From positions 50,525 through 114,524 of the forward strand of contig CACYSA010000001.1 in NCBI GenBank assembly GCA_902777015.1: a stretch of 64,000 nt of DNA. Reading direction: 5' to 3'. Numbering within the stretch: position 1 is the first letter of the stretch; the number at the start of each line of letters is the position of its first letter. The translations under genes and the position numbers were made by a program. Below, piece by piece: positions 1,066 through 19,996 of the stretch. The notes beneath the pieces are model-generated. The model saw only the letters and a program-made list of their open reading frames with translations, did no database searches and had not been told where the DNA came from. Source of the DNA: an uncultured Erysipelotrichaceae bacterium (lineage in GTDB: Bacteria; Bacillota_I; Bacilli_A; RFN20; CAG-826).

Positions 1066-2111
1066 ATGCTGGTCTCCTCAACTTTGGCTTTTAATTGACC
1101 ACACGCTGCATCAATATCTGAGCCAAATTCTTTTCTAATAGTCGCGGTTACTCCACCTTTCATTAGATAATCTAAGAAAGCGTGGACACGGTTACCACTA
1201 GAACGATGGAATTCTGGGAATTTATTTGTCTCATTATATGGGATGAGATTAACGTAACCCATCGTTCCTTTAATTAGTTTAATTAATTCTTGAGCGTGTT
1301 CTTTGGTATCGTTGATACCTTCTAGAAGAAGATATTCGTAGGTCACTCTTCTTTTAGTTTCTTTTTCATAATAACGGACCGCTTCCATCACTTTATCCAA
1401 AGGATAGGCACGGTTAATTTTCATTAATTTGCTTCTTAATTCATCATTAGGAGCGTGCAAAGATATCGCTAAATTGCTTTGCAGATGTTCATCAGCGAAT
1501 TTATAAATATTTTCCACGATACCACATGTTGAGATCGTGATATGTCTAGCACCGATTGCTAAACCTTTTGGGTGATTTAAGATTTTAATGAAATCTAAAA
1601 CGTTATCATAATTATCAAAAGGTTCACCTGTTCCCATAACAACAACATGGGTGACATGTTGACCTTTGTTTTCTTCTTTTAAGAGTTTGTTTATTAATAA
1701 AACTTGCCCCATCATTTCTTCTGGAAGTAAGTTTCTTTGTTTACCTAAGATACCACTGGAGCAAAATGAACAACCCATATTACAACCAACTTGTGAGCTC
1801 ACGCATACAGCGCAGCCATATGAGTAACGCATTAAGACACATTCGACTTTATAGCCATCTATTAGTTGGACTAATAATTTGATTGTGCCATCTTTACTCA
1901 CTTGTTTAGTGTGAATGCTTGGTAAATCTAAACAATATTTTTCTTTTAGAACTTCACGGAAAGATTTAGAAATATCACTCATCTCATCAAACGATGTGGC
2001 TTTCTTTTCATAAATCCACGAATAAAGTTGTGTGGCGCGATAAGGTTTTTGACCCTCACCCTCCATCACTTTGATGAGTTTATTCATTTCTAATCCGTAA
2101 AGGTTAATCAT
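1062..2111 (-). CDS. rlmN: 23S rRNA/tRNA adenine-C2 methyltransferase, radical SAM
   Basis: 349 aa with the radical-SAM cluster motif CNMGCSFC and a C-terminal catalytic Cys region (DIDAACGQL). Conserved position between rsmB and prpC. Confidence 0.9.
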   Translation of the reverse strand: MINLYGLEMNKLIKVMEGEGQKPYRATQLYSWIYEKKATSFDEMSDISKSFREVLKEKYCLDLPSIHTKQVSKDGTIKLLVQLIDGYKVECVLMRYSYGCAVCVSSQVGCNMGCSFCSSGILGKQRNLLPEEMMGQVLLINKLLKEENKGQHVTHVVVMGTGEPFDNYDNVLDFIKILNHPKGLAIGARHITISTCGIVENIYKFADEHLQSNLAISLHAPNDELRSKLMKINRAYPLDKVMEAVRYYEKETKRRVTYEYLLLEGINDTKEHAQELIKLIKGTMGYVNLIPYNETNKFPEFHRSSGNRVHAFLDYLMKGGVTATIRKEFGSDIDAACGQLKAKVEETSI

Positions 2112-3366: not shown

Positions 3367-3388
3367 AATGACTTCTCTCCTGACTTAA

Positions 3389-3841
3389 TTAGTCTTTGTT
3401 GAAACTTTGGAAGATATCGCCAGTGAAGATTTCGTCTTCGCCTTCTCCTTCTTCCATGTCCTCATAATCCTCATTAGTAACATCAACTAAATTATCCGCG
3501 GCAATAAAGCGTGGATAGGATTCATTGAATTTACTGTAGCGATCATCTTGCGAATAATAGTAAAATTCAAGAATTTTATTAATCGCGACATCGCCGATAC
3601 TTTCTAAAATTAATTTCGCTACTTGGTCTTGTAAGACAGCGACTTTCTTAGGAGCGTGAACATGGATAATAATATTCCATGATGTTTGTTCCACGCCGTT
3701 ATGGAACACCATGTTTTCTGGTGCCACAAAAAGAATATCGTCTTCACTCATTTCGTATAACTTTGCTAAATTTGGAGTCATTTCACGAGATAAGCGTCCA
3801 ACGACGAATTGATCTAAACCATAAATGGTAATCGTAATCAT
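3389..3841 (-). CDS. Small acidic-tailed hypothetical protein, possibly DUF1904/tautomerase-like
   Basis: ORF trimmed to ATG 3841 (MITITIYGLDQ...), which has GAGGT 9 nt upstream. The ORF-track start at 3883 lies inside the priA-terminus repeat. The family call rests only on remembered sequence character. Confidence 0.5.
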   Translation of the reverse strand: MITITIYGLDQFVVGRLSREMTPNLAKLYEMSEDDILFVAPENMVFHNGVEQTSWNIIIHVHAPKKVAVLQDQVAKLILESIGDVAINKILEFYYYSQDDRYSKFNESYPRFIAADNLVDVTNEDYEDMEEGEGEDEIFTGDIFQSFNKD

Positions 3842-3862
3842 AAAAAATATACCTCGGGTATA

Positions 3863-3916
3863 AGTATAATACAGGAAATACATTTTTTATACTAAAAATT
3901 GTATGGATCAATATTA
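3863..3916 (-). repeat. Direct repeat copy C of the priA 3' terminus plus downstream spacer (putative distal island boundary)
   Basis: 3878-3916 (39 nt) is identical to 10289-10327, which holds the last 8 priA codons, the stop and 14 nt of spacer. A weaker match extends to 3863. Confidence 0.85.
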
Positions 3917-3933
3917 GTTATAGTTACCGATAG

Positions 3934-4446
3934 TTATTGAGTTGCTGAAGAATAATTATCTAATCTATCTTTAGTGCTTTTATTGCGACAATAATCATGA
4001 TAAATATCCAGCAAACTAAAAGCGTAATAATTAGCTTCTCTTTCAATGCTTCTACTGGTTCGATTTTTATCATCAAAAAAATACCATTGATAATAATATG
4101 TTAATAATTTTGTTAAGTTTAATAAAATATTGTCCATGTTTTCGATCGCTGACTTAGCTGCCACAAAAATACAAGGATAAACAATTAGATTCTCAGTTTT
4201 CTGTCCATTCACAAACTTTCCATAAATTCTTTTTCCACTTTCGTTAAGGAAAAATGAACAATTACGGATATAAATCTTACACCGAATAGGGAAAAAGTAC
4301 TTTTTTCTTAAAAAAGCAATATATTTTTTAATCAAGTTTCTTTCTTCAAAAGGATATTTTTTATCAAATAGCAATCTCAAGCCATGTTTTTTTGAATCCA
4401 AATAATACTTTTTACAATCAAAATCAATCCAAGAGTTATAGCTCAT
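3934..4446 (-). CDS. Candidate immunity protein for the RHS1 C-terminal toxin
   Basis: 170-aa ORF starting MSYNSW at ATG 4446. It overlaps the RHS1 stop (4436-4438) by 11 nt, with GGAGA upstream. The position immediately downstream of a polymorphic toxin is the only functional evidence. Confidence 0.55.
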   Translation of the reverse strand: MSYNSWIDFDCKKYYLDSKKHGLRLLFDKKYPFEERNLIKKYIAFLRKKYFFPIRCKIYIRNCSFFLNESGKRIYGKFVNGQKTENLIVYPCIFVAAKSAIENMDNILLNLTKLLTYYYQWYFFDDKNRTSRSIEREANYYAFSLLDIYHDYCRNKSTKDRLDNYSSATQ

Positions 4447-7400
4447 ATTCGTCTCCATCTCCAAATAAATAATCAAATTCATTTTCTATAAGCCATCCCA
4501 GAAAAAGTATATATTTCAAGTGGTCCCGACCAGGTGTATGGTGCTTAAGGGGTTTCCTTCCTCTTCTAAATTTGCATTTTGTATCAAACCTTTGTCTCGA
4601 TTTATTTTTTAATTCTCTTCCTTGCTTTTTTTGACCTGGCCTTGCATTTGGATCTTGTGGGTTAAATTCTTCGACTGTACAACCACTGGTTAGAACAGTT
4701 ATTTTCGTAAATTTATCTGTTGATTTGATTGTATCTTCACCGCTGAAATCTATCGTGTTAAAACTATCATTGATTGCATTTCCGATTTCGCTAATTGTTG
4801 AAGAAAGAGAATCTGAAAAGCTTTTTAAAGCTGGATATGCGATATAAACCAGTAATACACAACAAAGAAAAATACCAGAACAAGCGATTATAGTGAGTTC
4901 ATGTCCAAGAGGATCAAAATAGTTCATTGGATTATTGGCGCAGTAACAATATAAATTTAGCCCAAAAGAGTCTTTGTACTCTAAATATGCCCAATCATCA
5001 GGAGATATAAATCTACCTGTTTCTGGATCATAATATCTAGAAGTAAGCCAGTATAACTTTAAATCAGTATCGTAATAATAAGAACGATATCTAATTGGAT
5101 TAATATTACCAATGAATGAAGGGTCAGTATTCTCCAAACCATTAGAATCGAAAACTTTATGATAGCCCCACGCGTCGTAAACGTATCTTGCCACTACTTG
5201 GAAGCTACTATTTCTAATAGCAATAACATCTTGTTGAATATCCTTTTCGTAATAATAAACTTGATTATTAAAAACAAAGCCAATAACACCATTATGGGAA
5301 TTTAGATATAGTAAGGTATCAACATTATTTCTTACTTCACTGATGAGTGTTCCATTTATATAGTTATACTTTGTATAGTTTGTAGGACTGATAGATTTTA
5401 ATATCCTTTGTTTAAAACCATCATATTTAAAAGAAACTGTAACACTATTACTTACTTGATAAGTTTCTAGAAGCGTTCCTCTTGTCCAAGTTAAATTGTG
5501 ATTTCTATAAACAGTAGGATTACCATAGTTATCATATCGAATTGATTGATTATTATAAGAAGTCAATCTGTTAGGATGATTTGGATCATCATATGTGTAT
5601 AAATGCCAAGCTAAAATGTTACTAGGAGTTAGAGGCGATGAATAATCATATTCTTGTTTTGAAACAATGTTACCGTTATTATCGTAAGCAATGAAGAATC
5701 TACGATCTAATTGTTTGTTCCACTCTTCTATTAAACGTGAGTATTTATCATAAATATAGTCATTTGATTCTATTATTTGTGAAGATATCGACGTGAGATT
5801 AGAAATATTGCCAAGGCTATCATAGGTATAATGATCAGTCCTATGAAGCGTAGGAACATTGTTAGTGACACTATAATAAGAAACTGTCTTTGGAAGATTA
5901 TTACTTCTATTAGCGTCTGTTGATGAATGACAATAAGTAATTGTCTTTTTAAAGCCAGAATAGTTAATAAGAAGGGATTCTTCTGTTAACCGTGAATAGA
6001 CATCAACTTCATTGTCAACTTTTATAAAACTGCCACTATAAGCGATGGTTGATTTTTTTATAGTCTTCTCTAAGCCGTTGTTTGGATAATAAACGTAAGT
6101 GACATAGTATAAAGAGGCGACTGCCATCTCAACAAGGCGACGATTTTTTTCATATTCGTATGATACTGAAAGACCATTATAATCAACCTCTGTAGATATT
6201 AATTGGTTATAATAATCAAATTCATTCGTAATGTATGGGTTTAGATTTGGATCAAGTTGTGTAATGGCATTATCATTAATCGATATAGGATTATTGAAAT
6301 CATCGTATTCAAATTCTAGATATTCATCAGTGGTAACTCTATTTCTATTGTCAAACTCAGCATAACATTCATATCCATTTGCGTATCTAGTGTAATATCG
6401 ATAATTCTTCACAATGTCTTGATGAATGTTCGGAACGTATTCAATTTCTGCAATTTGATGATTATTATATTTGACTTCGCACACTTCTCCACCTGAAGAA
6501 TTGATGGTAAAAGTATTGTTGCTAGTTGCTAAAGAATAAGAGTCTTCACTTATGTAATTGTTATACTGGTCGAAGTAATTGGTGGCTGATGCTTTAAACT
6601 GAACGCTTTTTTCTCTTTCGCTTGTTATTGAATCAAAAGAACGTGACTCTATTAGACCATTAGGATACGTGATAACGTTGTTTCTTCCGAAACCGTTATA
6701 AGCATATGTCTTTGTGGATACGTTTTCACCGATTAGTTCACCACTACTTATGAGCTTATCCTCGTTTGAATTATCATAGGAGTTTTCGCTTAAAAAATAA
6801 TCATAACTGGAAACACTGCTAATTGTTTCTTCTAATAAGTTTCCACGATTGTCATAAGTATATTCTTCTACATAACTATCACTTCTTGTTACTTTTTGAA
6901 GGATATAATTCTCATCGTAATCATTTATATATGAATAACTATTAGTGCTACTTAGATGTTTAATTACTTCTTCCTCATAAAAGAAAGAGATATTACCACT
7001 TGAGAATGACTGGTTGTTATGCGAGATTCTTGTTACTTCAACAGTTGCATCATCCTTTGCATTTATTTTGTAAAAAGAAACATCAGCGGATGTACCTGGA
7101 CCAGCATATTTGATGCTTTTTGGACTATTTGACCAATTCATATTTAAGTAGTTTCTCATGCTAATGGTCAAAGAAGTAACGTTGTCCACTAGTTTTGTAA
7201 AATTATCAAACCAAAAATGATTAGAGCCACTACTATTGGTCCAGAACAATCTCTCGTTAGCGAGATAATCATCCATGGAGCAATGGTAATACTGCATATA
7301 GACACTTCCGTTTAAAAACACACCTTTGCCATTTGATAAAAAGTAATACGGTGTATCTCCATAAAAGAATACCGGACCATCAGTTCTAACGTTTGAGCAA

Positions 7401-8794
7401 AAAGCTTCGAACTCCCCAATTAGTGGCACTAGTTTAACTTCTTCAATAAAAACTGAATTTTGAAAATTCTTTGTGATGGTTAAATAAAACTTTCTTTGGG
7501 TGGAATGTCTAACACCAACTGGTGAGGCAAGAAGAGAGGTTCCATTTTTAAAATCTAGCATCGCTAAAGAATTACCATCATAGTCTTTTAATTCAACTGT
7601 GAGCGTGTCATTGTTTGCAAATTGGCCATAAATTCTAGCGTAGAACAAATATATTTTTTCTGATTGGATATTGCTGTTTCCGTTAACAATACTCTGATGA
7701 AACCATTCATTATTTGGCATGTCGTAGGTATATGATGACTGTTGGCCACCACTATTTAATTTAAAATGTATGATTTGATTATCATCGATGTCTTTTATTA
7801 AGCAATTAGCAAATTCTGAACTAAGTGTGAAATAACTGAGATTCCCTGAGCCTTGCGACTTTTGCGAAACTAATTGTTCTTGATTAAAATCATATAAAGT
7901 ATTAATTCCATGTGCATCTTTAACAGTCACCTTATTCTCGCCATAGTGATAATCAAAAGCATATCTAACATGATTTAAAGAAGAACTGAGAACTGAGACT
8001 TTATCGCTATAGTAATTAACAGTAAATGTATCGCCATTATCTAGTTCGAGTTCATATAAAAATGGGCTGCAGGTAAAGTTTTCTTCAATGATGTTATTAT
8101 CACCGATGTTTTTGGTGACTTTTGTCAAATAATAGTCGCTATTAAAAAGAACAGTAGATACTAGATTGTTATTGAAGTAAATCTCCACATGATTATAGTA
8201 ATAGGCAAAATAGACAGTTCTACCATAGTTATCACTGATATGGTCTATTTTTAACGAACCATTAGCACCGTCAATTAAATAAGATATGGAAACTTCCGCT
8301 GATAAAGACGATGTTATGTGTTGATGGATTAAGATAAGACGACCATATATGTCAAATTGTTGATAATTGCCATAATCATCAAATACTTTATAGCCACCAC
8401 TTTGGAGAGTTTCTAGCATTAAGCCAGAACCTTTTATATCGTAATATAGTGATGAGGAATTTATAGCTTTTTCAAACACATGTAAGAACCCATCTGAATC
8501 CTCATAATTATACTTATCAATGCTGGAATCATACTCGAGAAACACATGGTAATTTGTCTTGCATCCTTTAGGAAAACCAGTTGCATAATGTAGATATCCA
8601 ATAGAAACAGTATGCGTTTCGATATACTTTAATGATAAATTTAGTGGTAAATATCTTCCTGGCAAGGAGAATAGTTTTCGAGTAAAGTAAAGTTTTCCGT
8701 GTTCTAAATCGACCTTAAAAGAATAGTCTTTATAGTCGTGTTTTAAAAACTGCTTATATTTATCAAAATAGTAGCCAGCGAAATAGAAAGACAT
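4436..8794 (-). CDS. YD-repeat / RHS-family polymorphic toxin, 1452 aa
   Basis: Many YD repeats (YTYDNRGNLLEE, YTYDSLGNISN, IAYDNNGNIVSK, RYDNYGNPTVY). RHS core end is GNINPIRYRSYYYDTDLKLYWLTSRYYDPETGRFISPD...NPMNYFDPLGH, followed by a 154-aa variable C-terminus. GAGG lies 8 nt before the ATG at 8794. Confidence 0.9.
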   Translation of the reverse strand: MSFYFAGYYFDKYKQFLKHDYKDYSFKVDLEHGKLYFTRKLFSLPGRYLPLNLSLKYIETHTVSIGYLHYATGFPKGCKTNYHVFLEYDSSIDKYNYEDSDGFLHVFEKAINSSSLYYDIKGSGLMLETLQSGGYKVFDDYGNYQQFDIYGRLILIHQHITSSLSAEVSISYLIDGANGSLKIDHISDNYGRTVYFAYYYNHVEIYFNNNLVSTVLFNSDYYLTKVTKNIGDNNIIEENFTCSPFLYELELDNGDTFTVNYYSDKVSVLSSSLNHVRYAFDYHYGENKVTVKDAHGINTLYDFNQEQLVSQKSQGSGNLSYFTLSSEFANCLIKDIDDNQIIHFKLNSGGQQSSYTYDMPNNEWFHQSIVNGNSNIQSEKIYLFYARIYGQFANNDTLTVELKDYDGNSLAMLDFKNGTSLLASPVGVRHSTQRKFYLTITKNFQNSVFIEEVKLVPLIGEFEAFCSNVRTDGPVFFYGDTPYYFLSNGKGVFLNGSVYMQYYHCSMDDYLANERLFWTNSSGSNHFWFDNFTKLVDNVTSLTISMRNYLNMNWSNSPKSIKYAGPGTSADVSFYKINAKDDATVEVTRISHNNQSFSSGNISFFYEEEVIKHLSSTNSYSYINDYDENYILQKVTRSDSYVEEYTYDNRGNLLEETISSVSSYDYFLSENSYDNSNEDKLISSGELIGENVSTKTYAYNGFGRNNVITYPNGLIESRSFDSITSEREKSVQFKASATNYFDQYNNYISEDSYSLATSNNTFTINSSGGEVCEVKYNNHQIAEIEYVPNIHQDIVKNYRYYTRYANGYECYAEFDNRNRVTTDEYLEFEYDDFNNPISINDNAITQLDPNLNPYITNEFDYYNQLISTEVDYNGLSVSYEYEKNRRLVEMAVASLYYVTYVYYPNNGLEKTIKKSTIAYSGSFIKVDNEVDVYSRLTEESLLINYSGFKKTITYCHSSTDANRSNNLPKTVSYYSVTNNVPTLHRTDHYTYDSLGNISNLTSISSQIIESNDYIYDKYSRLIEEWNKQLDRRFFIAYDNNGNIVSKQEYDYSSPLTPSNILAWHLYTYDDPNHPNRLTSYNNQSIRYDNYGNPTVYRNHNLTWTRGTLLETYQVSNSVTVSFKYDGFKQRILKSISPTNYTKYNYINGTLISEVRNNVDTLLYLNSHNGVIGFVFNNQVYYYEKDIQQDVIAIRNSSFQVVARYVYDAWGYHKVFDSNGLENTDPSFIGNINPIRYRSYYYDTDLKLYWLTSRYYDPETGRFISPDDWAYLEYKDSFGLNLYCYCANNPMNYFDPLGHELTIIACSGIFLCCVLLVYIAYPALKSFSDSLSSTISEIGNAINDSFNTIDFSGEDTIKSTDKFTKITVLTSGCTVEEFNPQDPNARPGQKKQGRELKNKSRQRFDTKCKFRRGRKPLKHHTPGRDHLKYILFLGWLIENEFDYLFGDGDEYEL

Positions 8795-8803
8795 CTAAAA
8801 AAC

Positions 8804-9295
8804 CTCATAATCATTATAATTCACGGGATACATTTTTAATATTAAAAATTGTATGGATCGATATTAATCAATAATTCGTACTGACTGTTATAGGCGAATA
8901 GCTGTTGCATCTTTTCTAATATTTGATGGGCTTTATTTGGGTCACGATATTTCACGAGAATGTTTCTTAGATGGTAACCCATATCATAAGGTACATATGG
9001 AGTGGATGGGCCTAGTATTTGTCCTTCGTCCCCAAATTCATCATTAAGGAAGTCAACAACTTGATATGTATTTTCAATTTTGTTCGAGTTGTTTAAGTGA
9101 TGGAGGTTTTAAATAGAAAGAAATGACTCTATCATCTTTAACCTTCTTTAATGCTTGTCCAGCATCGTTGATTTCGATTTCTAATAAGACGTTTTTACCT
9201 TGATTACGAAGATCTTCAACAATGCTCTTTGGTGTACCGTATATGTTACCAACGAACTCTGCCTTTTTAAGAAGTTATTGCTTTATTATTCTTTT
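8804..9295 (-). pseudogene. Chimeric relic: internal gmk fragment fused to priA 3' fragment plus priA downstream spacer
   Basis: By hand alignment, 8804-9079 matches 10265-10540 (priA end plus 38-nt spacer) with about 16 mismatches in 276 nt. 9080-9263 matches 12682-12865 (inside gmk) with about 10 mismatches, and looser similarity runs to about 9295. The junction lies at an AATT microhomology. There is no start codon. Confidence 0.85.
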
Positions 9296-10233
9296 GCTTC
9301 TTCTATGGTTATTACTGGAAAGAATTTAAAGTAATTGAAATAAACATTAGAAAACATTTGGTATCCCGTTATTTCTTGTTTTATCATACTATAACCTATT
9401 ATTAAATAATCATATTTCCAATCCGCATTTGGATTGCCACGATATACAATGTATGAGATATTATCTTCAAAAGAATAATGCCAAAACGGTTTAAAATCAT
9501 ATTCCATCATAATCGAATAAATATCTTTTTTTATTAATTCAGCATCGAATAAAGAAACATTATAAGTATTGTCACGATTACGCAGTAATACTTTTTCTTC
9601 TATAAGGCATCTTCCGTCAATTAACTTACATTTCTCCTTGTAATACAATTCATCATCGAAGATTTTAATATCTTCGCTATCGCTAGGTATTTTTTCTAAT
9701 GTGTTATCAAACAAATCAAGTTCATAAAACCCAGAATTTGTTTTGTAATACATTTTTGAATCATAACCACTATTATATGATTCTATTTCTTCATCAAAAT
9801 AAAAAACAAATTCAAAATTATCAAAATTAGTATCTGTTTTTCCAATGCAATATTCTTTTTCTTGTTTATTGAAAAGAAAATAATAATGATTTTCTAAATA
9901 TACTAAAAATTTTACTATGTCATAGTCGCTGTTTTCTATTTTTAAACGCTGTTTAAAGTCATAATAGCTAATATAGTTTTCATATGAAAAATCTATATGA
10001 TGTGCATACTCTTTATCTAAAACACAAAAATTATCTCTACACAAAGGAACTAATCTTTGTTGGATTTGATTCTTTCTTTCCTTCCAAGAAGAATTAATTA
10101 AAGAGTCAATCGCTAGGCAAATTGCAACACCGATCGCCACAAGAGTAAAAGGGTTAAAAATTATCCAAATTGTAATCCATAAAGAGCGTGTTTTTTGCCA
10201 AAAAGTTTTTTCTTTTTTTGAATCAATTGCCAT
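9286..10233 (-). CDS. Hypothetical single-pass membrane protein (cassette gene X), Tyr/Asn/Phe-rich ectodomain
   Basis: 315 aa with an N-terminal TM helix (LWITIWIIFNPFTLVAIGVAICLAI). It lies between two copies of the priA-terminus repeat. Its last codons and stop lie in gmk-derived sequence. Confidence 0.7.
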   Translation of the reverse strand: MAIDSKKEKTFWQKTRSLWITIWIIFNPFTLVAIGVAICLAIDSLINSSWKERKNQIQQRLVPLCRDNFCVLDKEYAHHIDFSYENYISYYDFKQRLKIENSDYDIVKFLVYLENHYYFLFNKQEKEYCIGKTDTNFDNFEFVFYFDEEIESYNSGYDSKMYYKTNSGFYELDLFDNTLEKIPSDSEDIKIFDDELYYKEKCKLIDGRCLIEEKVLLRNRDNTYNVSLFDAELIKKDIYSIMMEYDFKPFWHYSFEDNISYIVYRGNPNADWKYDYLIIGYSMIKQEITGYQMFSNVYFNYFKFFPVITIEEAKE

Positions 10234-10302
10234 GATTATTCTTCTCTATCAAAATGTCTAATGACTCATAATCATTATAATTCACGGGATACATTTTTTA
10301 TA

Positions 10303-12498
10303 CTAAAAATTGTATGGATCAATATTAATCAAGAGTTCGTATTGACTGTTATAGGCGAATAGCTGTTGCATTTTTTCCAATATTTGATGGGCTTTATTTG
10401 GGTCGCGATATTTAACAAGGATGTTTCTTAGATGGTAACCCATATCATAAGGAACGTATGGAGTGGATGGTCCTAGTATTTGTCCTTCATCCCCAAATTC
10501 ATCATTAAGGAAGTCAACAACTTGATATGTATTTTCAATTAGATTCTCTTCGTTTTTAGCGCGTAAAGTCACACTCGCTAAATAGGCATATGGAGGATAA
10601 AATTGTAGTTTGCGCATTTCCATCTCTTTACGATAGAAAAGTTCATAATCTTGTCTAGCTGCGAACGTAATTGCGTAATGACTTGGAAGATATGTTTGAA
10701 TAATCGCGGTACCTGGTTTATCTTTTCTTCCAGATCTTCCAATGGCTTGAGTAATTAGTTGGAACGCTCTTTCGTTACTACGATAAGATGGCATTGATAA
10801 ACCAATGTCCGCTAAAACGATACCAACTAGGGTTACATCTGGGAAATCATGGCCTTTCGCTATCATTTGTGTACCAATTAAGACATTAGCTTCTTTCTTT
10901 CTAAATGCTTCAATTGTTTCAGGTATTTTGTTTCTATTTTTAGCACTATCACTATCTAGTCTTAATGTTTTAGCGCTCGGGAAAAGACGCTTAACTTCTT
11001 CTTCTATTTTTTCTGTTCCAAAGCCTGTTTTCATGAGATAGGAAGAGCCACAATCTGGACATGTTTCTTGCATTGGTTCAACATAATCACAGTGATGGCA
11101 TTTAAGCATGTTATCTCTTTTATGGTAGGTTAGTGCTATCCCACAAGTTGGACACTTAAAAACATGACCACAGTTACGACAAGTAACATGAGTGGAAAAT
11201 CCTCTTCTATTGATTAATAAGATAGCTTGTTCTTCTCTTGCTAATGTAATGTGAAGAACATCTCTTAAAGCATGAGAAAAGATATAACTATCCCTATCAA
11301 TGTTCTTATAATCAAGCATGTTCACAATCTTAGTGGTTGGTAGCTTTTGATTATTGATACGCTTATTTAAATAAAGCATATGATAGACGCCTTTTTGTCC
11401 TCTTGCTCTACTTTCTAAAGATGGAGTAGCGCTTGCTAAAAGGACTTTGGCGTTATTATATTTAGCGCGCATTATCGCTACTTCTCTAGCGTGATAGAAT
11501 GGTAAATTATCTTGTTTATATGATTCAGTATGTTCTTCATCTAGGATGATTAAGCCAATATTTTTAAGAGGAGCGAATATCGCACTTCGTACACCCACGA
11601 CTACTTTGCAGTCCCCATGATTAATCTTACGGTATTCATCATATTTTTCCGCAGGGGTTAATTCACTATGAAGAATAGCGACGTTATTTTGGAAACGATG
11701 GAGGAAATATTCCACCATCATGGGAGTTAATGATATTTCAGGAACAAGCATTAAAACTGATTTACCTTGTTTAAGAACTTGTTCGCTTAAAGATAGATAA
11801 ACTTCTGTTTTGCCGGACCCAGTAACACCCTCTAACAAGTAGACTAAATCATTAGAATTATTGAACTCATCAATAACCTTATTTTGATCATCGCTAAGTT
11901 TAGGAGGAGCACTATATTTATAATCAGGTATCTTTAACCTGCGTTTTTCTTCTTTAACAATCTTGATTCTTTGTTTTTCTAAAAGCTTTTCAATGATACT
12001 AGGAGATTTAACATCTCTTTTTAAAATACGACCATCGTTTTTAATTAATCTTAATAATTCGATTTGTTTATTTGTTAAATCAGATTCATCATCATTAATA
12101 ACTTCTAGATATTGATCATACGCAATTTTAGGAGCTTTTAATGATGTCTTTTTTGGTGATAAAGAAGGAGGTAACATTGATTGAAGAACACTAATCTTAG
12201 GCACTAGATAATATGAAGATACTTCATCTAATAAAGATAATAATTCTTCGTTTAATAATGGTTCATCATCAATGACATCTTTTATTTCAGAAATAGAGAA
12301 ACCCTTTTCTTCTTCATATTGTTCTATTGATTTATTAGTTTCTTCTACCTTTACTACGTAACCAATAATGTCTCGATGATTAAAATCAAGTAAGACACGG
12401 ATACCTTTCTTTAGAATTTTGCCACCATTATAAAAATAAGAAAAAGGACGGTTTAATGAGCTTTTAGCATATTCAATGAGAACTTCCACTACTTGCAT
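10303..12498 (-). CDS. priA: Primosomal replication restart helicase PriA
   Basis: 731 aa with Walker A GVTGSGKTEVY, DEEH box, and the Cys-rich zinc region CRNCGHVFKCPTCG...CHHCDY...CPDCGS. Confidence 0.95.
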   Translation of the reverse strand: MQVVEVLIEYAKSSLNRPFSYFYNGGKILKKGIRVLLDFNHRDIIGYVVKVEETNKSIEQYEEEKGFSISEIKDVIDDEPLLNEELLSLLDEVSSYYLVPKISVLQSMLPPSLSPKKTSLKAPKIAYDQYLEVINDDESDLTNKQIELLRLIKNDGRILKRDVKSPSIIEKLLEKQRIKIVKEEKRRLKIPDYKYSAPPKLSDDQNKVIDEFNNSNDLVYLLEGVTGSGKTEVYLSLSEQVLKQGKSVLMLVPEISLTPMMVEYFLHRFQNNVAILHSELTPAEKYDEYRKINHGDCKVVVGVRSAIFAPLKNIGLIILDEEHTESYKQDNLPFYHAREVAIMRAKYNNAKVLLASATPSLESRARGQKGVYHMLYLNKRINNQKLPTTKIVNMLDYKNIDRDSYIFSHALRDVLHITLAREEQAILLINRRGFSTHVTCRNCGHVFKCPTCGIALTYHKRDNMLKCHHCDYVEPMQETCPDCGSSYLMKTGFGTEKIEEEVKRLFPSAKTLRLDSDSAKNRNKIPETIEAFRKKEANVLIGTQMIAKGHDFPDVTLVGIVLADIGLSMPSYRSNERAFQLITQAIGRSGRKDKPGTAIIQTYLPSHYAITFAARQDYELFYRKEMEMRKLQFYPPYAYLASVTLRAKNEENLIENTYQVVDFLNDEFGDEGQILGPSTPYVPYDMGYHLRNILVKYRDPNKAHQILEKMQQLFAYNSQYELLINIDPYNF

Positions 12499-12510
12499 AT
12501 TTTACCGTCT

Positions 12511-13083
12511 TTAGTCTTTATCAAATTCCTTTAAGATTTTTATGATTTCTTCACCAGCGCGTTTAATACGATCGTTCATAATAACGAAATCGTAATTCTT
12601 TGCTTTTTCCATTTCAGCTTCCGCTTTAGCTAAACGCTTTTGGATGACTTCTTCAGTTTCTGATTTTCTTTTTCTAATTCTTTGTTCGAGTTGTTTGAGT
12701 GATGGCGGTTTTAAATAGAAAGAAATGACTCTATCATCTTTAACCTTCTTTAATACTTGTTCAGCACCGTTGATTTCGATTTCTAATAAGACGTTTTTGC
12801 CTTGATTACGGAGATCTTCAACAATGCTCTTTGGTGTACCATATCGGTTACCAACGAACTCTGCCCATTCTAAGAAATTATCGTTATCAATATTCTTTTG
12901 GAATTCTTCTTGAGAAACGAAGTAATATTCAACCCCATGTGTTTCTGTAGCGCGTGGCGCTCTTGTGGTCATGGAAATTGAAAAGACCATTGGGAAAGCA
13001 TCACGGTTCATAATATATTTTCTAACCGTGCCTTTACCGACACCAGATGGTCCACTAAGAATAATCAATAACCCTTTTTTCAT
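12511..13083 (-). CDS. gmk: Guanylate kinase
   Basis: 190 aa with P-loop GPSGVGKGT and YYFVS...FLEWAEFVGNRYGT. It lies 12 nt upstream of priA. Confidence 0.93.
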   Translation of the reverse strand: MKKGLLIILSGPSGVGKGTVRKYIMNRDAFPMVFSISMTTRAPRATETHGVEYYFVSQEEFQKNIDNDNFLEWAEFVGNRYGTPKSIVEDLRNQGKNVLLEIEINGAEQVLKKVKDDRVISFYLKPPSLKQLEQRIRKRKSETEEVIQKRLAKAEAEMEKAKNYDFVIMNDRIKRAGEEIIKILKEFDKD

Positions 13084-13248
13084 ATTATCAGTTATTTTAA
13101 ATGATATTTATTAATAAGGCAACATCTTCATTACCCTATTTTTACGCTACTAACGGACAATTCGTGTGTTTTGTATGCGAGTTTTATAAAGTACACTTTA
13201 TTTTCTCACATATCTTTTCAAAAGTGTTTTTGCTATCATAATAATTGT

Positions 13249-14619
13249 ATGAATTATTATTCTTATTCTGCATTTAAAGAAATTGTTAAAGAATTAAAAG
13301 AGAAGATTGTTGGCTGTCGTATTAATAACATTACGGTCATTAATTCTCATGACTTTTTATGCACCTTATCAATGATTAAAGATGAGAAGTTATTAATATC
13401 ATTAAACCATCAACATCCTTTTGTTTCTTTAATTGATGTAAAGAAAGTTGAACCAACAATTACTGGTTCGCTTAATGAAGCGCTTAGAAAGCATCTTAAA
13501 GATGCCTTTATTGTCGATATATCTCTAGATAATGATGATAGAATTGTTCATTTCATTATTCAAAAAGCTAATGATTATTATGAGAAAGTTGTTACCCATT
13601 TATATTTAGAATGCATTCCTCAAAGAGCAAACCTTATCTTTGTTAATGAAGATAATAAGATTATCCATGCTTTGCATTATTCTGGTATCACTACTTCTAG
13701 ACCAATACTTAATGATTTAAGTTATGAATATCCTAATAAGGGTGTTTTAAAAGATGAAGAAGTACCTACTTTAGAAGATATTAAGAAACAAGCAATTAAC
13801 TATTATGAAAATGCCTTATTAGTGCACAAGAAAGAAAAGTTCACACCACTTTATCGTTATATCAAATCTAGAATCAAATCATTAGAAAAGAAATCTAAAG
13901 TTTTAGCAGTAGAAATTGATGAGGCTAAAAGCCATCTTAACGATGCAGAAATTGGTAACTATTTATTAGCGTTTCAATATGATCAAAATGAACTTAATAA
14001 TTATTTAAAAGAAAACAATATATCTTTAGATAACTCTAAATCTTTAGTGGAAAATGCGAATAGTTATTTTAAGAAATATAAAAAGAGTAAAAGAACGATT
14101 GAGATGGCTAATATTGAAGTAGATAAAGCTAAAGAAGAAAGCGATTATTTAACTTATTTATTAAGTAGTTCACAGTTTATGAATGATGATGAACTCTTAG
14201 CGCTTTCTCAAGAACTACTTCCTAAGCAACACCTTAAAAAGAAACTAACTCCTATTAGATGTTCATATATCATCTATGATAACGTGAAGATTTCTTTTGG
14301 TAAGAACGCTTCAAGTAATAACGAATTAACATTTAAAATCGCTCATAAAGATGATACATATCTTCATATTAAAGATTATCATGGAGCGCATGTTATTATT
14401 CATGATTCTAATCCCTCTAATGAAGTTAAACTCGTAGCGGCGGAACTCTGCTTGATTCTTTCCAATAAATCCGCGGGTGATATCATGATTACTAACATGA
14501 AAAACGTTAAAAAAGGCCACGCTTTAGGCGAGGCTAATTTGCTTAATTATTCAATTATTACTTTAACTTCTATTAGAGAAGCCACTATATCCTTAATTAG
14601 TAATAAGAAAGATTACTAA
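13249..14619 (+). CDS. rqcH: NFACT-family protein (fibronectin-binding protein A / RqcH-like ribosome quality control factor)
   Basis: ORF trimmed to ATG 13249 (MNYYSYSAFKEIV...). It has an N-terminal NFACT-N-like region, a coiled-coil middle and a C-terminal NFACT-R/DUF814-like motif HIKDYHGAHVII. No clear SD sequence. Confidence 0.75.
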   Translation: MNYYSYSAFKEIVKELKEKIVGCRINNITVINSHDFLCTLSMIKDEKLLISLNHQHPFVSLIDVKKVEPTITGSLNEALRKHLKDAFIVDISLDNDDRIVHFIIQKANDYYEKVVTHLYLECIPQRANLIFVNEDNKIIHALHYSGITTSRPILNDLSYEYPNKGVLKDEEVPTLEDIKKQAINYYENALLVHKKEKFTPLYRYIKSRIKSLEKKSKVLAVEIDEAKSHLNDAEIGNYLLAFQYDQNELNNYLKENNISLDNSKSLVENANSYFKKYKKSKRTIEMANIEVDKAKEESDYLTYLLSSSQFMNDDELLALSQELLPKQHLKKKLTPIRCSYIIYDNVKISFGKNASSNNELTFKIAHKDDTYLHIKDYHGAHVIIHDSNPSNEVKLVAAELCLILSNKSAGDIMITNMKNVKKGHALGEANLLNYSIITLTSIREATISLISNKKDY

Positions 14620-14623
14620 GGCT

Positions 14624-14902
14624 TTAAAAATCGTTGTACAAGTATTTTATAACACCACAAATTAAAGCAATGAGATTAAAGTCATCTTCCAAACAGTTAT
14701 AATCATCACTATTAATAATATCTCTATCTATTGTACAAACGTTGCCTTTGTATACATAAAAATCCAATTGTCGATTATTTTTATCTTTTATAGTCAACGC
14801 CATGGTTGAAAGAGACTTTTTGTTGTATTGAAAATCTAAAACCGAACAACCATAAAAGTACAAAAACCATTCAATCAATTCTCTCATCTTTTTCTTTCTC
14901 AT
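14624..14902 (-). CDS. Candidate immunity protein for the RHS2 C-terminal toxin
   Basis: 92 aa from ATG 14902 (MRKKKMRELIEW...). The start overlaps the RHS2 stop as TAATG. Positional evidence only. Confidence 0.55.
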   Translation of the reverse strand: MRKKKMRELIEWFLYFYGCSVLDFQYNKKSLSTMALTIKDKNNRQLDFYVYKGNVCTIDRDIINSDDYNCLEDDFNLIALICGVIKYLYNDF

Positions 14903-17900
14903 TAAAACATTCTCCAATCTATTCCATGTTCAATCAAAAAATCAATTTCATCCCATAAAGCTGAAGTGGGCTTAGCTGCTCTTATACCAGTAACGGCAAA
15001 TTCACTTCCAAGCGTGATTGCATCGTTGAGAAAAGTCGCATTCAACTTCCATTGTTCGCACAAATCTAATGAGAAATAGACTTCTTTTGGTATGTCAAAA
15101 GCGCTCGCTCCAATATATTTTGCCACATTTAAATATGCCGGAAAGCTTCCAAGAACTGTAATCGCTTTTATAGGAAGAACATAATATTTTGTTATGGAAA
15201 AGCCAAGTATTCCGGTAATTTCGGTAATCATTGATCCAGCAACATATCCAATTATACCTCCAACAACAGCACCGCCAAGCGCTCCTAGTGCGGTTAGACC
15301 GAATAATTCCCAGCCTTCTTTCCCTTCGTTTTTCATTTTATTGTAAGTAATTACCCCGCCAATGGTGGCACCAATTAGCGCACCAGCGATTAAACCAAGC
15401 ATAGCAAGAGATATTGCCAAATGCCCATCTTCATCCATCAACATCACCGGATTATTATTACAATAAGCATATAGATGGAAACCTGAGATATTGTCTTGAT
15501 TTAAATATTGGAATTCATCTGGAGAAATGAACTGCATGATAGATGGATCATAATATCTGGCTAATAGATAATATAGGCCTGTTTCAACGTCATAATAATA
15601 GCCTTTATATCTAATCGGATTGATATTACCAACTGATGACATATTAGTGTCTTCATCACCTGTAGCAGTTAAAACTTTGTGATTACCCCAAGCGTCATAA
15701 ATATACCTAGTAACAAAGCTTCCCATTTTGTCAACGATACCAATTATTTGATTAAATGGATTTTTAACATAACGATAAGAAGTGCTAGATGAACCATTAT
15801 AGTAATTAAAGCCCACTATGCCGGTTTCATCATAGAAATACCTGATTTCTTTATTATCACTTCTCTTTTCGCCAATTAGTCTATTGTCATGATAATAGTA
15901 AGTAATCGTTAAGGAGTTATTGATCTTCTTTTGATATCTTCTATTTTGATAATCATAAGTAAACTGCACTGTTTGGTTTCCTTTAACGAACTGACTTAAT
16001 AATGTACCCCTAGTCCATTGATAAGTTTCATTTCCTTTTGTCAAACGATTACCGTATGCATCATATGTAAAAGTGATGTTACCAAAAGAAATCAATCTAC
16101 CCTTGATATCATAAGTTAACGAATTATTGCCAACTGTTGATAATCTTCCATATGTATCATAAGTATACGAACGATTATATTCAGAAAAAGAAACATTGTA
16201 TTCTTGTGTTATACGATTAAATCCATCGTAACTATACGCAAAGCGAGGGAATGATTCTCCATTAGTGTAAATACTAGAAAGATTGCCAAAAATATCATAG
16301 CTATAGGATTCTAAATAAACAGGATAAATTATCGTATTATTCGTTTCGTCTTCATTAATACCAAATGTAAAATTATATGGCAAAGAAGAACCATTAATAT
16401 ATGTTATGTCACTAATAAGACAGTTGGTGTTAACAGCAGCAAATACACTATAATGCTTTTTGACTCTACCGAAGTTATCTTTTTGAATATTGAACGTGTG
16501 AATAGTTACATTATGAAAATTATGATTCTCTAGCCTTATTTCAGTTTCATCAACACTGCGTATAAAAGACATATCATATAAGCCGAAATCATATATTGTT
16601 CCGTTAATGTAATAGCCTTCATCAATGATAAATTCATCGTTATTAAAATTAGTTGTAATCAAAGAATTATCGATTTGATCATAAGTGAACGATGTCACCA
16701 AACCACTAGCATCATTATGTTTATCAGTTATAGAAGTTAGATTTGAAGCAAAATAAGATTCACCACTATTTGTATATGAATAATCAACCTTGGTTTCACT
16801 ATTAAGACGAATATGGGTTAACTTTTTATAGTTGTTCCGTTGATAGACAAGCTGCAGGGAAGAAGGATAGTTGATAATAGTACTATTGCCGTTTTCCAAG
16901 ATAGAATACAAAGAAGAATAAGTATCATCACTTTCTAAAACTTTGTAAGTGATACCTTTTTCCATAGTGCTTTGAACAGCTTGATAATTTGTTGCACCAT
17001 TAGAAAAACTCTGAGTATTGTTAACATAGTTAATTCTATTAGTGTTTGTGCATTCAATATTATCATTTAAGCAAAAATTGATCTTAACTGGACCATCACC
17101 ATTAATGGTATATATGTATTTTTTTGAATAATAACTGTTTAAAATAGTTGATCCGCTAACAGTGTTTCTAACGATTGATGACGGACCGTATCTACCATAA
17201 GTTATATCAACACTATTTTTATCACTTGTTTTTCTAGAGATAAAACCTTTGTTGTTTTCGCTCGCCTCATAAAGAACGATAGTCTCTATTCCATCAGTGG
17301 ATATAACTTTCTTAAGTTCTCCATTAGTGAAGTATTCATATGTAGTTGTATTTGTGGACACAACATGAGCCACTAAAGGATTGCCACTCCATTTATATTC
17401 AGTGCTTGTCTTTTCAATTAGTTTTTCATAGTAATCGTAGGTTTTTATTTCTTCACTTATCTTACGAAATACACCATCAACGTATGTGCCATATCTAGTT
17501 GTTATTACTAGAGTATCATCGATAAAAGAATAATAAACTCTAGATGCAGTATCGTTCTCGGAAGATAATATTGTTCTATCTGGAGAAACGGTTTCAAAAT
17601 ACCAAACAAAGTCTTGTTCAGAATCAATATCGAAATTAGAGCAATTAAAAGAATTAAAAATAATATCGTTACCGTTAAATAGACAGAAGCGGAAATTATA
17701 AGAGTCCACTACTCGACCATCGTTAAAATATAACGGGTGAGCGTGAGGGGAATAGTTTCCATATAGTAAATCAAAACAATTATGTTGGTGTGAAATTGTA
17801 TTAAGAAGATCGTTTGGTGACATTCTTATTTCACCAGTAACATCAATAATCCTACTTGGTGTTTGATCGTAATAAGAAGGATAAAGACCAACAGAAGTCA

Positions 17901-19407
17901 CTTCATCAAATGAGTGAGTTCCATTAGCGTCTTTAAAAAATAAAGTTGTTTTTGCTTTTTTATCAAAATAGATGTCACCAATATCAACACTGACACTGTT
18001 GCAGTTTTCATTAATAAATGACAAATAAATTGTTAAAGAGGAGATATTATTAATATTTCTAGTTATTGGGACTTCCACTAACTGATATTTATCGAATTGA
18101 AGAACATTAATATCGACCGGCGAAGAAGATATGGTGTTTGATCCAGCAATGACTGCTCTTACTCTTTTAGATGTGTAGTCGTTTAATCTTAAATAAAACC
18201 TTAATACAAAATATCTATAATTGTTTAATAAAGAAATGGCATTATAAGAAAAATACAAAGAAATTGGTGAAGTTGCTCTAATAAATCTATGGTTGTTAAC
18301 ATAGATATGTTGGGTATTGCCTGTAATAGGAATATAAACACCAGTTTCTTTATATAATGTTGTAAAATCATCGGAAGATAAACCATTAAAAACCGCGGTG
18401 ATCTGAGCATTTTTATCCATTGAATAGGAATAAAATACACCGTTTTTAATGACACTCACCTCATTAGTGGTCACCCAATCATCCGTTCTTAAGCTATAAC
18501 CGATGCGCTGAATTGTTTCTATAGCGGTAAAAAGACCGTCACTTGGATGATAATATCCTTTAGATAGAGCTGTCACCAAAAAGTCATTGTATAAGTTTAT
18601 ATAATCGTAATGGATTTCATAAACATCATGAGTTTGATGATTGTCTAAATAGTCAATCCTGTCGAAAGATGAATCTGGTATTGAAAGATCGCTGTTATAA
18701 TGAAACGAATATAATTCTCTTTCATCACTAATACCAGCATCTATAGACATGCTTGTTAAAAAGTTAGATGTGTATTCCAAATGAAGCCTATTTGCAATAG
18801 CAATATTGTGATATAAGGTGATATATGAAAGTTTTGAATCGGTATAAGCAAAATTGATATGCGTATGAGTATCTCTTTCATCACAAACTCTTGTTAAAAA
18901 GCCGTTTGCATCATATACGATTGTTTTGATGTTAGTGTCGTCAAAGCCGTTAACAATTTGAACAAGTCGTCCATAATCGTCAAAATACAGCTTATCGTTT
19001 TTAGAATTAACGATTTCCGCCATAAAAGAGCTATCTTCATCAAAATATAAGTAGAGATTGCTTTCATTACAAAAATACAAGGAAGTTTTTACATAATAAA
19101 ATGTGTGTATATAACCAAAATCATCAATGTATTTATAAATTGGATGTTCGTTATCATCCTCACCATCTTCTATTAAGAATTGATGATAATTTGTTTTAAA
19201 TCTATCCGGAAGTCCTAAACAACGATTCGATATGCTTTGAGGCATTCTTGAATGATATACAAGATTAAAACTTAATTCATATGAGTCCCTACTAACAGAA
19301 ATGGCATCACTAATAAATCTCATTGATTGGTCAAACAAATTAAAGAAAGGATTGTCACCAATCTCTGTACTTGAAATATTCTGTCTAGGGAGAAGTTCAG
19401 TGGGCAT
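14902..19407 (-). CDS. YD-repeat / RHS-family polymorphic toxin, 1501 aa (paralogue of 4436-8794)
   Basis: YD repeats ([34 protein letters not shown]). RHS core end is [38 protein letters not shown]...[12 protein letters not shown], followed by a 172-aa variable C-terminus. Confidence 0.9.
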   Translation of the reverse strand: [1501 protein letters not shown]

Positions 19408-19432
19408 ATGATTCTATTTGTTATCTAACCTA

Positions 19433-19460
19433 ATTCTATCATTTACCACTGAAATAGCAA
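19433..19460 (-). promoter_or_regulatory. Putative sigma-A promoter for RHS2
   Basis: On the minus strand: TTGCTA (19460-19455), a 16-nt spacer, then TAGAAT (19438-19433). The -10 box lies about 25 nt upstream of ATG 19407, just downstream of the trmL stop. Confidence 0.45.
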
Positions 19461-19483
19461 CACGCACAATACGCGTACAGGCC

Positions 19484-19996
19484 TTAATCTTTGAATAAGA
19501 AATCTGGCCCCTTAATTGCTTCTTCAGTAGCGAGATTAGGGAACTTTTGTTGTCTAAGAACTTCATAGGCCACTAAAGCGACACAGTTAGATAAGTTTAA
19601 ACTTCTTGCTTCAGGGACCATTGGTATTCTCATTAATCTATCTTCATGACTTTTTAGGATGTCATGAGGAATACCAGTTGATTCTCTACCAAACATTAAA
19701 TAGATATCTTTAAGTGGATTTGATAAATCATAACTGGAATAGACCGTTTTAGCGTATCTAGTTACATAGAAAATATCGGCGAGAGGATTCTCTTTTACAA
19801 ACGCTTCATAGTCAGGATAAAACTTCATCTTTAAATCGTCGATATAGTCCATACCCACTCTTTTGAGGTCTTTATTATCCACAGAAAAAGTAATTGGTCC
19901 AATGATGTGAAGCGTCGCATGGATAGCGACACATGTTCTCATAATGTTACCAGTATTTTGTGGTTTTTCTGGACGATATAAGACGATATGAAGCAT
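19484..19996 (-). CDS. trmL: tRNA (cytidine/uridine-34 2'-O)-methyltransferase, SpoU/TrmL type
   Basis: 170 aa with PQNTGNIMRTC and the C-terminal knot motif LNLSNCVALVAYE. TAATG overlap with ppa. Confidence 0.8.
   Translation of the reverse strand: MLHIVLYRPEKPQNTGNIMRTCVAIHATLHIIGPITFSVDNKDLKRVGMDYIDDLKMKFYPDYEAFVKENPLADIFYVTRYAKTVYSSYDLSNPLKDIYLMFGRESTGIPHDILKSHEDRLMRIPMVPEARSLNLSNCVALVAYEVLRQQKFPNLATEEAIKGPDFLFKD

Follow-up and report, generated by a model that had tools for sequence, protein, structure and literature searches.

The RHS2–immA locus

In this study, we analysed a 64,000-nucleotide (nt) stretch of DNA from an uncultured Erysipelotrichaceae bacterium (contig CACYSA010000001.1 of assembly GCA_902777015.1, positions 50,525 to 114,524; hereafter the window) and followed up one of its genes, RHS2, which lies together with the small gene immA between a trmL-like and an rqcH-like gene. 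An earlier annotation made from the letters of the window only (the sequence-only reading) had described the pair as an RHS toxin–immunity module. Comparison with related genomes and with protein families supports this description, and none of the tests that had been proposed as refutations went against it. On these grounds we infer that RHS2 carries a toxin at its C-terminus and that immA confers immunity to it.

The layout of the locus proved to be as described, with the coordinates of RHS2 exact to the base (Table 1). RHS2 is an uninterrupted open reading frame (ORF) of 1501 amino acids (aa). The 76 nt that separate the trmL stop codon from its start hold the promoter-like elements TTGCTA-16-TAGAAT, and the stop codons of immA and rqcH are only 4 nt apart. 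The ATG of immA overlaps the TAA of RHS2 (TAATG) and is preceded, 9 nt upstream, by a GGAG Shine-Dalgarno sequence.

Table 1. Features of the RHS2–immA locus and its neighbours (positions in the window)
Feature	Position	Strand	Remark
RHS2 ORF, 1501 aa, uninterrupted	14902..19407	-	RHS gene
immA, 92-aa candidate immunity gene	14624..14902	-	soluble; start overlaps RHS2 stop
trmL-like SpoU-type methylase	19484..19996	-	upstream neighbour of RHS2
rqcH-like NFACT protein	13171..14619	+	convergent downstream neighbour
Accessory island: promoter-like region, RHS2 and immA	14620..19484	-	missing in a genome of the same species
RHS2 N-terminal region and YD-repeat shell, aa 1-1329	15421..19407	-	PF05593, TIGR01643
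RHS-associated core, aa 1237-1329, ending in NNPVMLMDEDGH	15421..15699	-	TIGR03696, E 3.7e-21
Hydrophobic helix 1 of the C-terminal region, aa 1330-1355, GxxxGxxxGxxxG glycine zipper	15343..15420	-	directly after the core
Hydrophobic helix 2 of the C-terminal region, aa 1368-1394, glycine zipper	15226..15306	-	Gly-zipper_Omp; hydropathy 1.98
Soluble toxin-type domain, aa 1410-1501	14905..15180	-	profile family; AlphaFold pLDDT 93.7
Deletion endpoint in relatives	15312	-	start point of the orphan remnants in L007-L011 (codon W1366, inter-helix loop)
Leader, 76 nt	19408..19483	-	promoter-like elements; partly conserved in relatives

Domain searches confirmed that RHS2 is an RHS protein. It matched the YD/RHS repeat models PF05593 (E 1.1e-9) and TIGR01643 (E 8.7e-5), and its homologues carry PF25023, TEN_YD-shell. 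The match to the RHS-associated core, TIGR03696 (Rhs_assc_core), exceeded the model's cutoff of 32.5. The core, ending in NNPVMLMDEDGH, is followed by a C-terminal region (CT) of 172 aa. The motif that closes the core is the variant DEDGH in RHS2 and DPSGH in close homologues, and it stands in a predicted autoproteolysis context, YYDP...SPD...DEDGH. The core end is the predicted site of autoproteolysis and the zone in which cassettes recombine.

The window contains another RHS gene, RHS1 (4436..8794), of which RHS2 had been called a paralogue with the same shell and N-terminal architecture. Pairwise alignment upheld this in part: the last ~335 aa of the shell are alike (34% identity), as is an N-terminal stretch with one weak match (E 2e-5), but BLASTP found no similarity in the ~880 aa between, and the two proteins are only distantly related. 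The stretch around RHS1 (3917-10264) itself looks like an accessory island, as the related locus L022 aligns to positions 1-3916 and then to 10265-13142, skipping 6.3 kb. The CT of RHS1 has a hydrophobic segment directly after DPLGH and a Lys/Arg-rich tail at its end, and a 182-aa ORF (3934-4482) that matches no family overlaps the 3′ end of the gene.

The C-terminal region consists of a glycine-zipper hairpin and a soluble domain

The two glycine-zipper segments that had been noted in the CT are both present. Each contains GxxxGxxxGxxxG and has a hydropathy of about 2.0, and the Pfam model Gly-zipper_Omp (PF13488) matched the CT above its cutoff (E 6.7e-7, best stretch CT residues 43–67). The same hairpin (aa 1330-1394) occurs in the homologue P0004 in front of an unrelated C-terminal domain, so the hairpin appears to be a module separable from the soluble domain. 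Among the closest RHS homologues (P0006-P0028), a hydrophobic segment begins within 14 residues of the D-x-x-G motif in all 18 CTs that could be scored, while the ends of these CTs (last 110 aa) are for the most part unrelated; RHS proteins at a greater distance, such as ones from Xanthomonas or Phosphitispora, have no hydrophobic segment after the core. Since such a segment opens every scorable CT of the clade regardless of the payload, its role is likely to be generic rather than specific. Comparison of the CT with PDB chains gave no match better than E 0.1; the nine at E≤10 included none of the Tse5, EsxX or TspA type, whose presence in the PDB set searched was not checked.

The hairpin is followed by a domain of about 90 aa that the sequence-only reading could not assign. 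Searches of Pfam, NCBIfam, PDB sequences and profiles, and PADLOC returned no match for it, nor for any part of the CT beyond the glycine zipper. Neither this domain nor three canonical relatives hit a Pfam model even at E≤10, models of nucleoside 2-deoxyribosyltransferases (NDT) and TIR domains included, and none of 40 carriers scanned had a Pfam model covering the domain itself. The domain nevertheless belongs to a widespread family: a profile search of 1.84 billion cluster representatives retrieved 872 proteins at E≤1e-3, 96 of them at E≤1e-10; the source names seen were generic, such as 'RHS repeat-associated protein'. The domain ends no more than 18 residues from the C-terminus in 147 of 149 members examined, and half of the 40 carriers scanned have RHS repeats, with PT-HINT found in one. 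The CT is accordingly no conserved housekeeping domain, as its soluble part forms the very tip of polymorphic toxins of the RHS and PT-HINT kinds. Of the 105 members with sufficient sequence upstream, only 35 show a hydrophobic segment in front of the domain.

The family consensus is TVLGHYPxY..A..GA..F.IP...W..M...EQWAAN.KFLDRAI..G..F.LAT......GS.L..E..YL...GY. G1420, N1456 and E1487 are invariant, Y1425 and W1453 nearly so, and RHS2 retains all five. A literature search on deoxyribosyltransferase-like polymorphic toxins and on the family motifs gave no match; the preprint describing PT1-PT9 (10.1101/2021.10.19.465003) could be compared only without its family sequences, and the soluble domain may be identical to one of those PT families.

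AlphaFold gave a pLDDT of 45 with a 5-sequence alignment, and a usable model was obtained only with 50 sequences (pLDDT 93.7, pTM 0.84), in which strands and helices alternate. The top Foldseek matches in the PDB were 1t1j (E 0.08, probability 0.89), the ThsB TIR structures 8wcf and 9b7d, a putative deoxyribosyltransferase (4mcj) and Rcl (4fyk); those in BFVD were N-deoxyribosyltransferases (E 9e-3, probability 0.98) and DUF4406. In the NDT/TIR N-glycosidase superfamily, a single catalytic Glu is the key residue. The modelled fold suggests that the soluble domain is Rossmann-like and may be related to this superfamily, which we take as a lead only.

A family of small downstream proteins follows the soluble domain

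The product of immA has a maximum hydropathy of 1.21 and no transmembrane segment, and searches of Pfam, NCBIfam, PADLOC and the PDB gave no match. A word-indexed search found a single homologue, and the family was therefore traced through synteny and pairwise BLAST. immA is 95–97% identical in the related loci L008 and L013, where it is followed by a paralogue, immA2 (95 aa; immA versus immA2, E 1e-4), that is absent from the window. immA2 is intact in L013 (5121-5408); in L008 (3305-3622), as in L007 and L010, the other two of the three independent assemblies that reach it, it carries an identical 1-nt deletion in a T-run. The immA protein also resembles a 91-aa protein encoded 3′ of an orphan CT of the same family in L003-L006 (E 7e-4).

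Two more distant toxins with the soluble domain that were examined have comparable neighbours. A 106-aa gene follows P0129 in L031 and a 146-aa gene follows P0141 in L033, both overlapping the toxin stop codon; P0141 is an RHS protein of a Gemmatimonadota member without clear hydrophobic helices before the toxin domain. In pairwise comparison, the products of the 106-aa and 146-aa genes were similar to the L003 protein (E 7e-6) and to one another (E 4e-5), with an FGN/FDN-hydrophobic strand motif in common, and they are linked to immA only via a chain of similarities. That the 92-aa ORF should be conserved with the CT was thus borne out: the pair occurs together in the window, in L013 and in L007, L008, L010 and L011, with distant homologues in L003-L006, L031 and L033. 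Because the immunity family follows the soluble domain even in P0141, with no clear hydrophobic helices before it, the family tracks the soluble domain and not the hairpin. This is our main reason for taking the soluble domain as the likely specific toxic moiety, with the cytoplasm, within reach of a soluble immunity protein, as its probable place of action.

Locus states in related genomes reveal cassette exchange

Scans of genome contigs and metagenome contigs with the RHS2 protein found no relatives, and the empty sites were found by a search with the rqcH protein, which yielded 16 loci. Nearly all were labelled as rumen or gut metagenome-assembled genomes under the names 'Bacilli bacterium', 'uncultured Erysipelotrichaceae' and 'uncultured Bacillales'.

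One of them is an empty site. L015 (Bacilli bacterium RGIG9223, from water deer rumen), with 96.5% nt identity in both flanks, joins the base equivalent to 14619 directly to that equivalent to 19485, and the stop codons of trmL and rqcH overlap there (...AAAGATTAGTAATC...). From this exact junction it follows that 14620-19484 is a 4.9-kb accessory island that varies between strains within an uncultured rumen Bacilli species. The tight trmL/rqcH junction is shared by 12 further related genomes.

In L012, where trmL lies upstream and rqcH downstream as in the window, the same shell carries another CT. Its RHS protein, P0007, is encoded by a shell ~95% identical overall at the nt level to that of RHS2 (92–100% in most 300-nt windows, with dips to 82–88% in two), and the homology runs from the leader to ~15440, at the core end, and then stops. 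The CT beyond this point (NYCDPSGHF...) is unrelated, with glycine-rich hydrophobic segments and a different C-terminal domain; downstream of this CT lie a gene of 106 aa and another two small genes. Behind the 106-aa gene, the spacer holds a 33-nt direct repeat (5469-5545; 82% identical, 44-nt spacing).

In L012, two copies of the trmL 3′ end, forming an 85-nt direct repeat (86% identical, 6000 nt apart), flank the island, and this arrangement suggests that the original integration occurred by a single crossover in the 3′ end of trmL. About 15 nt of this repeat are kept in L013 and L008 and none in the window, where the right-hand copy has been lost. The full 85-nt duplication was seen only in L012, and neither meaningful flanking repeats nor an integrase was found for the island of the window. 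The two copies in L012 (295-379 and 6295-6379) bracket the 6-kb island like attL and attR, with no integrase present.

L013 shows the reverse combination, the same cassette on a diverged shell. Its RHS gene (P0008) is 56–80% identical at the nt level to RHS2 over the shell and 93–97% identical from ~170 nt before the core end through the CT and immA, the identity jumping from 56–82% to 93–97% between ~15740 and ~15590. Near codon 19 (L013 ~217-300), this gene is one A short (GGTGACATCC versus GGTGACAATCC), so that the called protein starts at an internal Met; the missing A reflects either a genuine frameshift at the 5′ end or a mistake in the assembly.

In L007, L008, L010 and L011, which come from different assemblies and have flanks 85–88% identical to those of the window, the shell is gone. 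The promoter-like region is joined directly to the CT at W1366, followed by an intact immA, at 95% nt identity; L009 has the same junction, and its contig ends inside the remnant. The frame of the soluble domain is intact in these orphan loci, and helix 2 survives there only in part. Their sole in-frame start codon is a GTG inside helix 2, the ATG just upstream being out of frame.

The sequence-only reading had called for strains to be compared for CT/immunity swapping at this locus, and the comparison found four states in relatives. The site is empty, or it holds an alternative CT with its own downstream gene, or the cassette of the window sits on a diverged shell, or an orphan CT remnant is left with immA. 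We estimated synonymous divergence (dS) and the ratio of non-synonymous to synonymous divergence (omega) between the window and L008 by the Nei-Gojobori method. For trmL, ppa and rqcH, dS was 0.71–0.89 and omega 0.07. For the CT remnant, dS was 0.045 and omega ~1.6, and for immA 0.021 and ~1.7, neither significantly above 1. A dS of 0.02–0.05 in the cassette against 0.7–0.9 in its flanks implies that the cassette was exchanged long after the lineages split and indicates recent horizontal exchange, and the omega values suggest that selection on it is relaxed or diversifying.

Other insertions were seen near the locus. A second insertion hotspot in relatives is the interval from gmk to rqcH, which is tight in the window (13084-13170): it holds another RHS gene, 41% identical over the core, in L018-L020 (~6000-7000 in L018) and a 1016-aa lipoprotein with collagen-like GxK/GxQ repeats in L015 (235-3285). 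In L003, an RHS gene is apparently split (2-1960, minus strand; 2100-3725, plus strand), with its signal-peptide-bearing N-terminal part on the opposite strand to its C-terminal part. Next come the CT and immunity gene that belong to this RHS gene, then an orphan cassette from the CT family of the window, and last another hydrophobic CT-like ORF. To judge by this gene order, the region looks like an orphan array with a possible inversion.

A promoter-like leader and the question of export

RHS2 had been credited with a promoter of its own. The elements are there: the -35 sequence TTGCTA (19460-19455), a 16-nt spacer and an extended -10, TGaTAGAAT (-10 at 19438-19433), the -35 being overlapped by a terminator-like hairpin for trmL (19478-19460). 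The scan by itself lends them no significance, as promoter-like sites numbered 24 against 29.1 ± 4.6 in shuffled sequences, a match that is not statistically distinctive in such AT-rich DNA. Their conservation across strains speaks for them. The leader segment is nearly identical in L012 and L013, and in L008 all three parts, the -35, its distance to the -10 and the extended -10 itself, persist immediately 5′ of the orphan remnant; this last case is the best evidence that the promoter is real, because the surrounding leader has diverged there. The leader promoter is therefore plausible but unproven.

No signal peptide and no LXG, WXG or PAAR domain were found in RHS2, and Pfam and NCBIfam gave no domains other than RHS. 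The N-terminal 100 aa reach a maximum hydropathy of 0.54. The RHS2 homologues inspected likewise lack a signal peptide, some of them having Big_3 domains, and no secretion genes were found in the window. As trafficking domains differ between Rhs subgroups, the missing determinant does not exclude RHS2 from the group.

Elsewhere in the window, a 2099-aa protein with N-terminal transmembrane helices (38163-44462, minus strand) matched nothing in Pfam or NCBIfam, and two tandem GGDEF-EAL proteins of 756 and 765 aa (59370-63955, minus strand) indicate cyclic-di-GMP signalling genes in this lineage.

A model for RHS2 and immA

Taken together, the results are best explained if RHS2 and immA constitute an RHS polymorphic toxin with its cognate immunity protein, the soluble domain being the payload. 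We assign this full account a probability of about 0.7. The N-terminal region and shell, ~1330 aa, would encapsulate the 172-aa CT, which would be released by autoproteolysis at ...DEDGH; by homology with other Rhs proteins, cleavage at this point and storage of the CT within the shell are highly probable. The two-helix glycine-zipper hairpin would insert into the membrane of the target cell and carry or anchor the payload, and we give even odds, with Tse5 as a precedent for a shell that chaperones a membrane-inserting CT, to its inserting there and either helping the payload across or adding depolarisation. The soluble 92-aa α/β domain is probably the specific toxic moiety, acting in the cytoplasm, as its distribution and that of the immunity family suggest. 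Our best guess at its activity is that of an N-glycosidase on NAD+ or nucleotides, because the modelled fold weakly resembles nucleoside 2-deoxyribosyltransferases and TIR domains; this guess is tentative, and we would sooner expect it to fail than to hold. The immA protein very likely neutralises the CT by binding to it. Recombination within the conserved end of the core would move the CT and immunity cassette from strain to strain and from species to species. Strains that have lost the shell would retain, for their protection, the promoter-like region and a remnant of the CT along with the immunity gene.

Several observations weigh against this account or parts of it. Neither RHS2 nor the island nor the window at large yielded a secretion signal or a secretion system, which leaves delivery unexplained. 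If the helical hairpin entered the membrane from the outside, the C-terminal domain would stay behind on the outer side, unless it oligomerised or were pulled through. The DPxG motif is present in RHS2 as the variant DEDG. Members of the immunity family resemble each other weakly, with pairwise E values of 1e-4 to 7e-6 from tiny searches. The omega above 1 in the cassette rests on 3.5 synonymous versus 19.5 non-synonymous differences. As to the proposed enzymatic activity, no Foldseek match reached E≤1e-3, the TM scores of 0.5–0.6 are of a kind that a small Rossmann-like domain gives with many folds, and the Pfam searches found no sequence-profile link to NDT or TIR families.

In the main alternative, the hairpin would itself be the weapon. 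The CT would then be primarily a membrane-depolarising or pore-forming glycine-zipper toxin of the Tse5-CT, EsxX, TspA, Tse4 and Ssp6 type, with the soluble domain as an accessory for targeting or regulation and with immA sequestering the zipper in the cytoplasm of the producer, as ExiAB does EsxX. The two perfect GxxxG zippers and the Gly-zipper_Omp match above cutoff are what such a toxin would show; the RHS shell of Tse5 chaperones a membrane-inserting CT (PMC10684867), and a glycine-zipper toxin of Staphylococcus aureus is neutralised by a soluble immunity pair (PMC12744356). Yet the soluble domain is an independent and widespread C-terminal family with invariant polar residues, most members of which have no hydrophobic segment upstream, and the immunity family accompanies it even in an RHS protein without clear hydrophobic helices. 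Hydrophobic segments, for their part, open every scorable CT of the clade whatever the payload, the orphan loci have retained the soluble domain with only part of helix 2, and the CT has no sequence similarity to any PDB chain. We therefore regard a CT that is primarily a pore former as unlikely, although a toxin with a dual action may exist.

There are two further explanations. The module could act inside its producer, as an addiction-type (toxin–antitoxin-like) or abortive-infection element that stabilises itself between trmL and rqcH, which would agree with the lack of a signal peptide or known trafficking domain and with the toxin-domain frame, immunity gene and promoter-like region kept intact in the orphan loci. 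A toxin–antitoxin pair has no need of a 4-kb shell, however, PADLOC found no defence-system match, and the only in-frame start of the orphans is the GTG within helix 2, the upstream ATG being out of frame. Interbacterial polymorphic toxins are typically marked by the combination of an RHS shell and core with a variable CT, swapped cassettes and orphan genes for immunity, as found here, and we consider an intracellular role very improbable. Alternatively, the toxin could be aimed at rumen eukaryotes, protozoa or fungi, and not at bacteria, the habitat being rich in eukaryotic grazers. Some RHS and Tc toxins do act against eukaryotes. A tightly coupled immunity-type gene, however, implies that the target exists in the producer too, and the retention of that gene by strains without the toxin fits competition among bacteria, so that we consider a eukaryotic target very improbable too. 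An interbacterial RHS toxin with a soluble-domain payload is thus the explanation that we prefer.

Relation to known systems

Rhs/YD-repeat polymorphic toxins with displaceable CT–immunity cassettes and orphan modules are known from enterobacterial Rhs and from WapA of Bacillus and Streptococcus (Zhang et al. 2012, PMC3482391), and Rhs effectors with orphan immunity genes from Serratia (PMC10539506). RHS2 resembles these systems in its YD repeats, in an RHS-associated core that ends in a D-x-x-G motif, in the unrelated CT that another strain has on a near-identical shell, in an immunity gene that overlaps the toxin stop codon, in breakpoints that fall in the conserved core end, and in orphan CT fragments preceded by a core stub (L003) or a promoter-like region (L008). 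It differs in having neither a Sec signal, which WapA has, nor a PAAR/VgrG link or an LXG domain, in that every scorable CT of its clade opens with a hydrophobic segment, in its host, an uncultured rumen Bacilli lineage, and in toxin and immunity families that have no database match. By its sequence, RHS2 has the features of an Rhs polymorphic toxin that we looked for, namely repeats, core, variable CT and a co-varying downstream gene; only a trafficking determinant could not be identified. That cassettes are displaced and immunity genes left as orphans is textbook Rhs behaviour; what is new here is the two families without database match, the hydrophobic CT start across the clade and an unusually complete set of locus states.

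Tse5 of Pseudomonas aeruginosa is an Rhs cage that carries a membrane-inserting, pore-forming CT (PMC10684867). As in Tse5, the shell of RHS2 would shield a hydrophobic CT until delivery, and the CT begins right after the autoproteolysis site, which is a predicted one in RHS2. Tse5, however, is delivered by type VI secretion and its whole CT is the pore former, whereas RHS2 has a distinct, conserved soluble domain after the hairpin and is paired with a soluble immunity protein. In EsxX–ExiAB of S. aureus, two soluble cytoplasmic immunity proteins partner a glycine-zipper toxin of the LXG type (PMC12744356). This system shares with RHS2–immA a C-terminal glycine zipper, adjacent small soluble immunity proteins and the keeping of immunity genes in toxin-less strains; it differs in its LXG domain and type VII secretion, in the absence of an RHS shell or an additional enzymatic-type domain, and in its membrane immunity proteins ExiCD, no counterpart of which was seen here. 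A PDB sequence search detected no homology between EsxX and the CT of RHS2, the presence of EsxX among the sequences searched being unchecked.

With NDT enzymes, DNPH1 (Rcl) and TIR domains (ThsB), the soluble domain would share a predicted three-layer α/β fold, these proteins recurring among the Foldseek top matches in two libraries, and an invariant Glu (E1487 in RHS2) where a catalytic Glu is their hallmark. It differs from them in that the matches are weak (best E 9e-3 and 0.08; TM 0.54–0.61), in being a shorter domain of ~90 aa and in having no profile match.

A bolder view would be that rumen Bacilli use a distinct RHS delivery architecture for targets with a single membrane. In place of a signal peptide or a secretion machine, one or two hydrophobic helices at the start of the CT, often glycine zippers, would carry interchangeable soluble toxin domains across, and RHS2 and immA would represent a new, widespread family of toxins that have a deoxyribosyltransferase/TIR-like fold and destroy NAD+ or nucleotides, and a new family of small immunity proteins. 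We consider this whole combination doubtful.

In summary, our analysis followed a single RHS cassette, among closely related rumen bacteria, through a natural series of states: empty, full, with a swapped tip, with the same tip on a diverged shell, and reduced to an immunity-only remnant with its promoter-like region. The synonymous divergence of the cassette, 20- to 40-fold lower than that of its flanks, points to the trafficking of toxin and immunity genes in an uncultured gut community. The locus also exposes two unmatched protein families, a toxin domain with at least 872 representatives, whose RHS carriers include one from Gemmatimonadota, and its small immunity partners. Finally, the hydrophobic start of the CT across the clade offers a testable idea of how RHS payloads may cross the membranes of Gram-positive or wall-less target cells.

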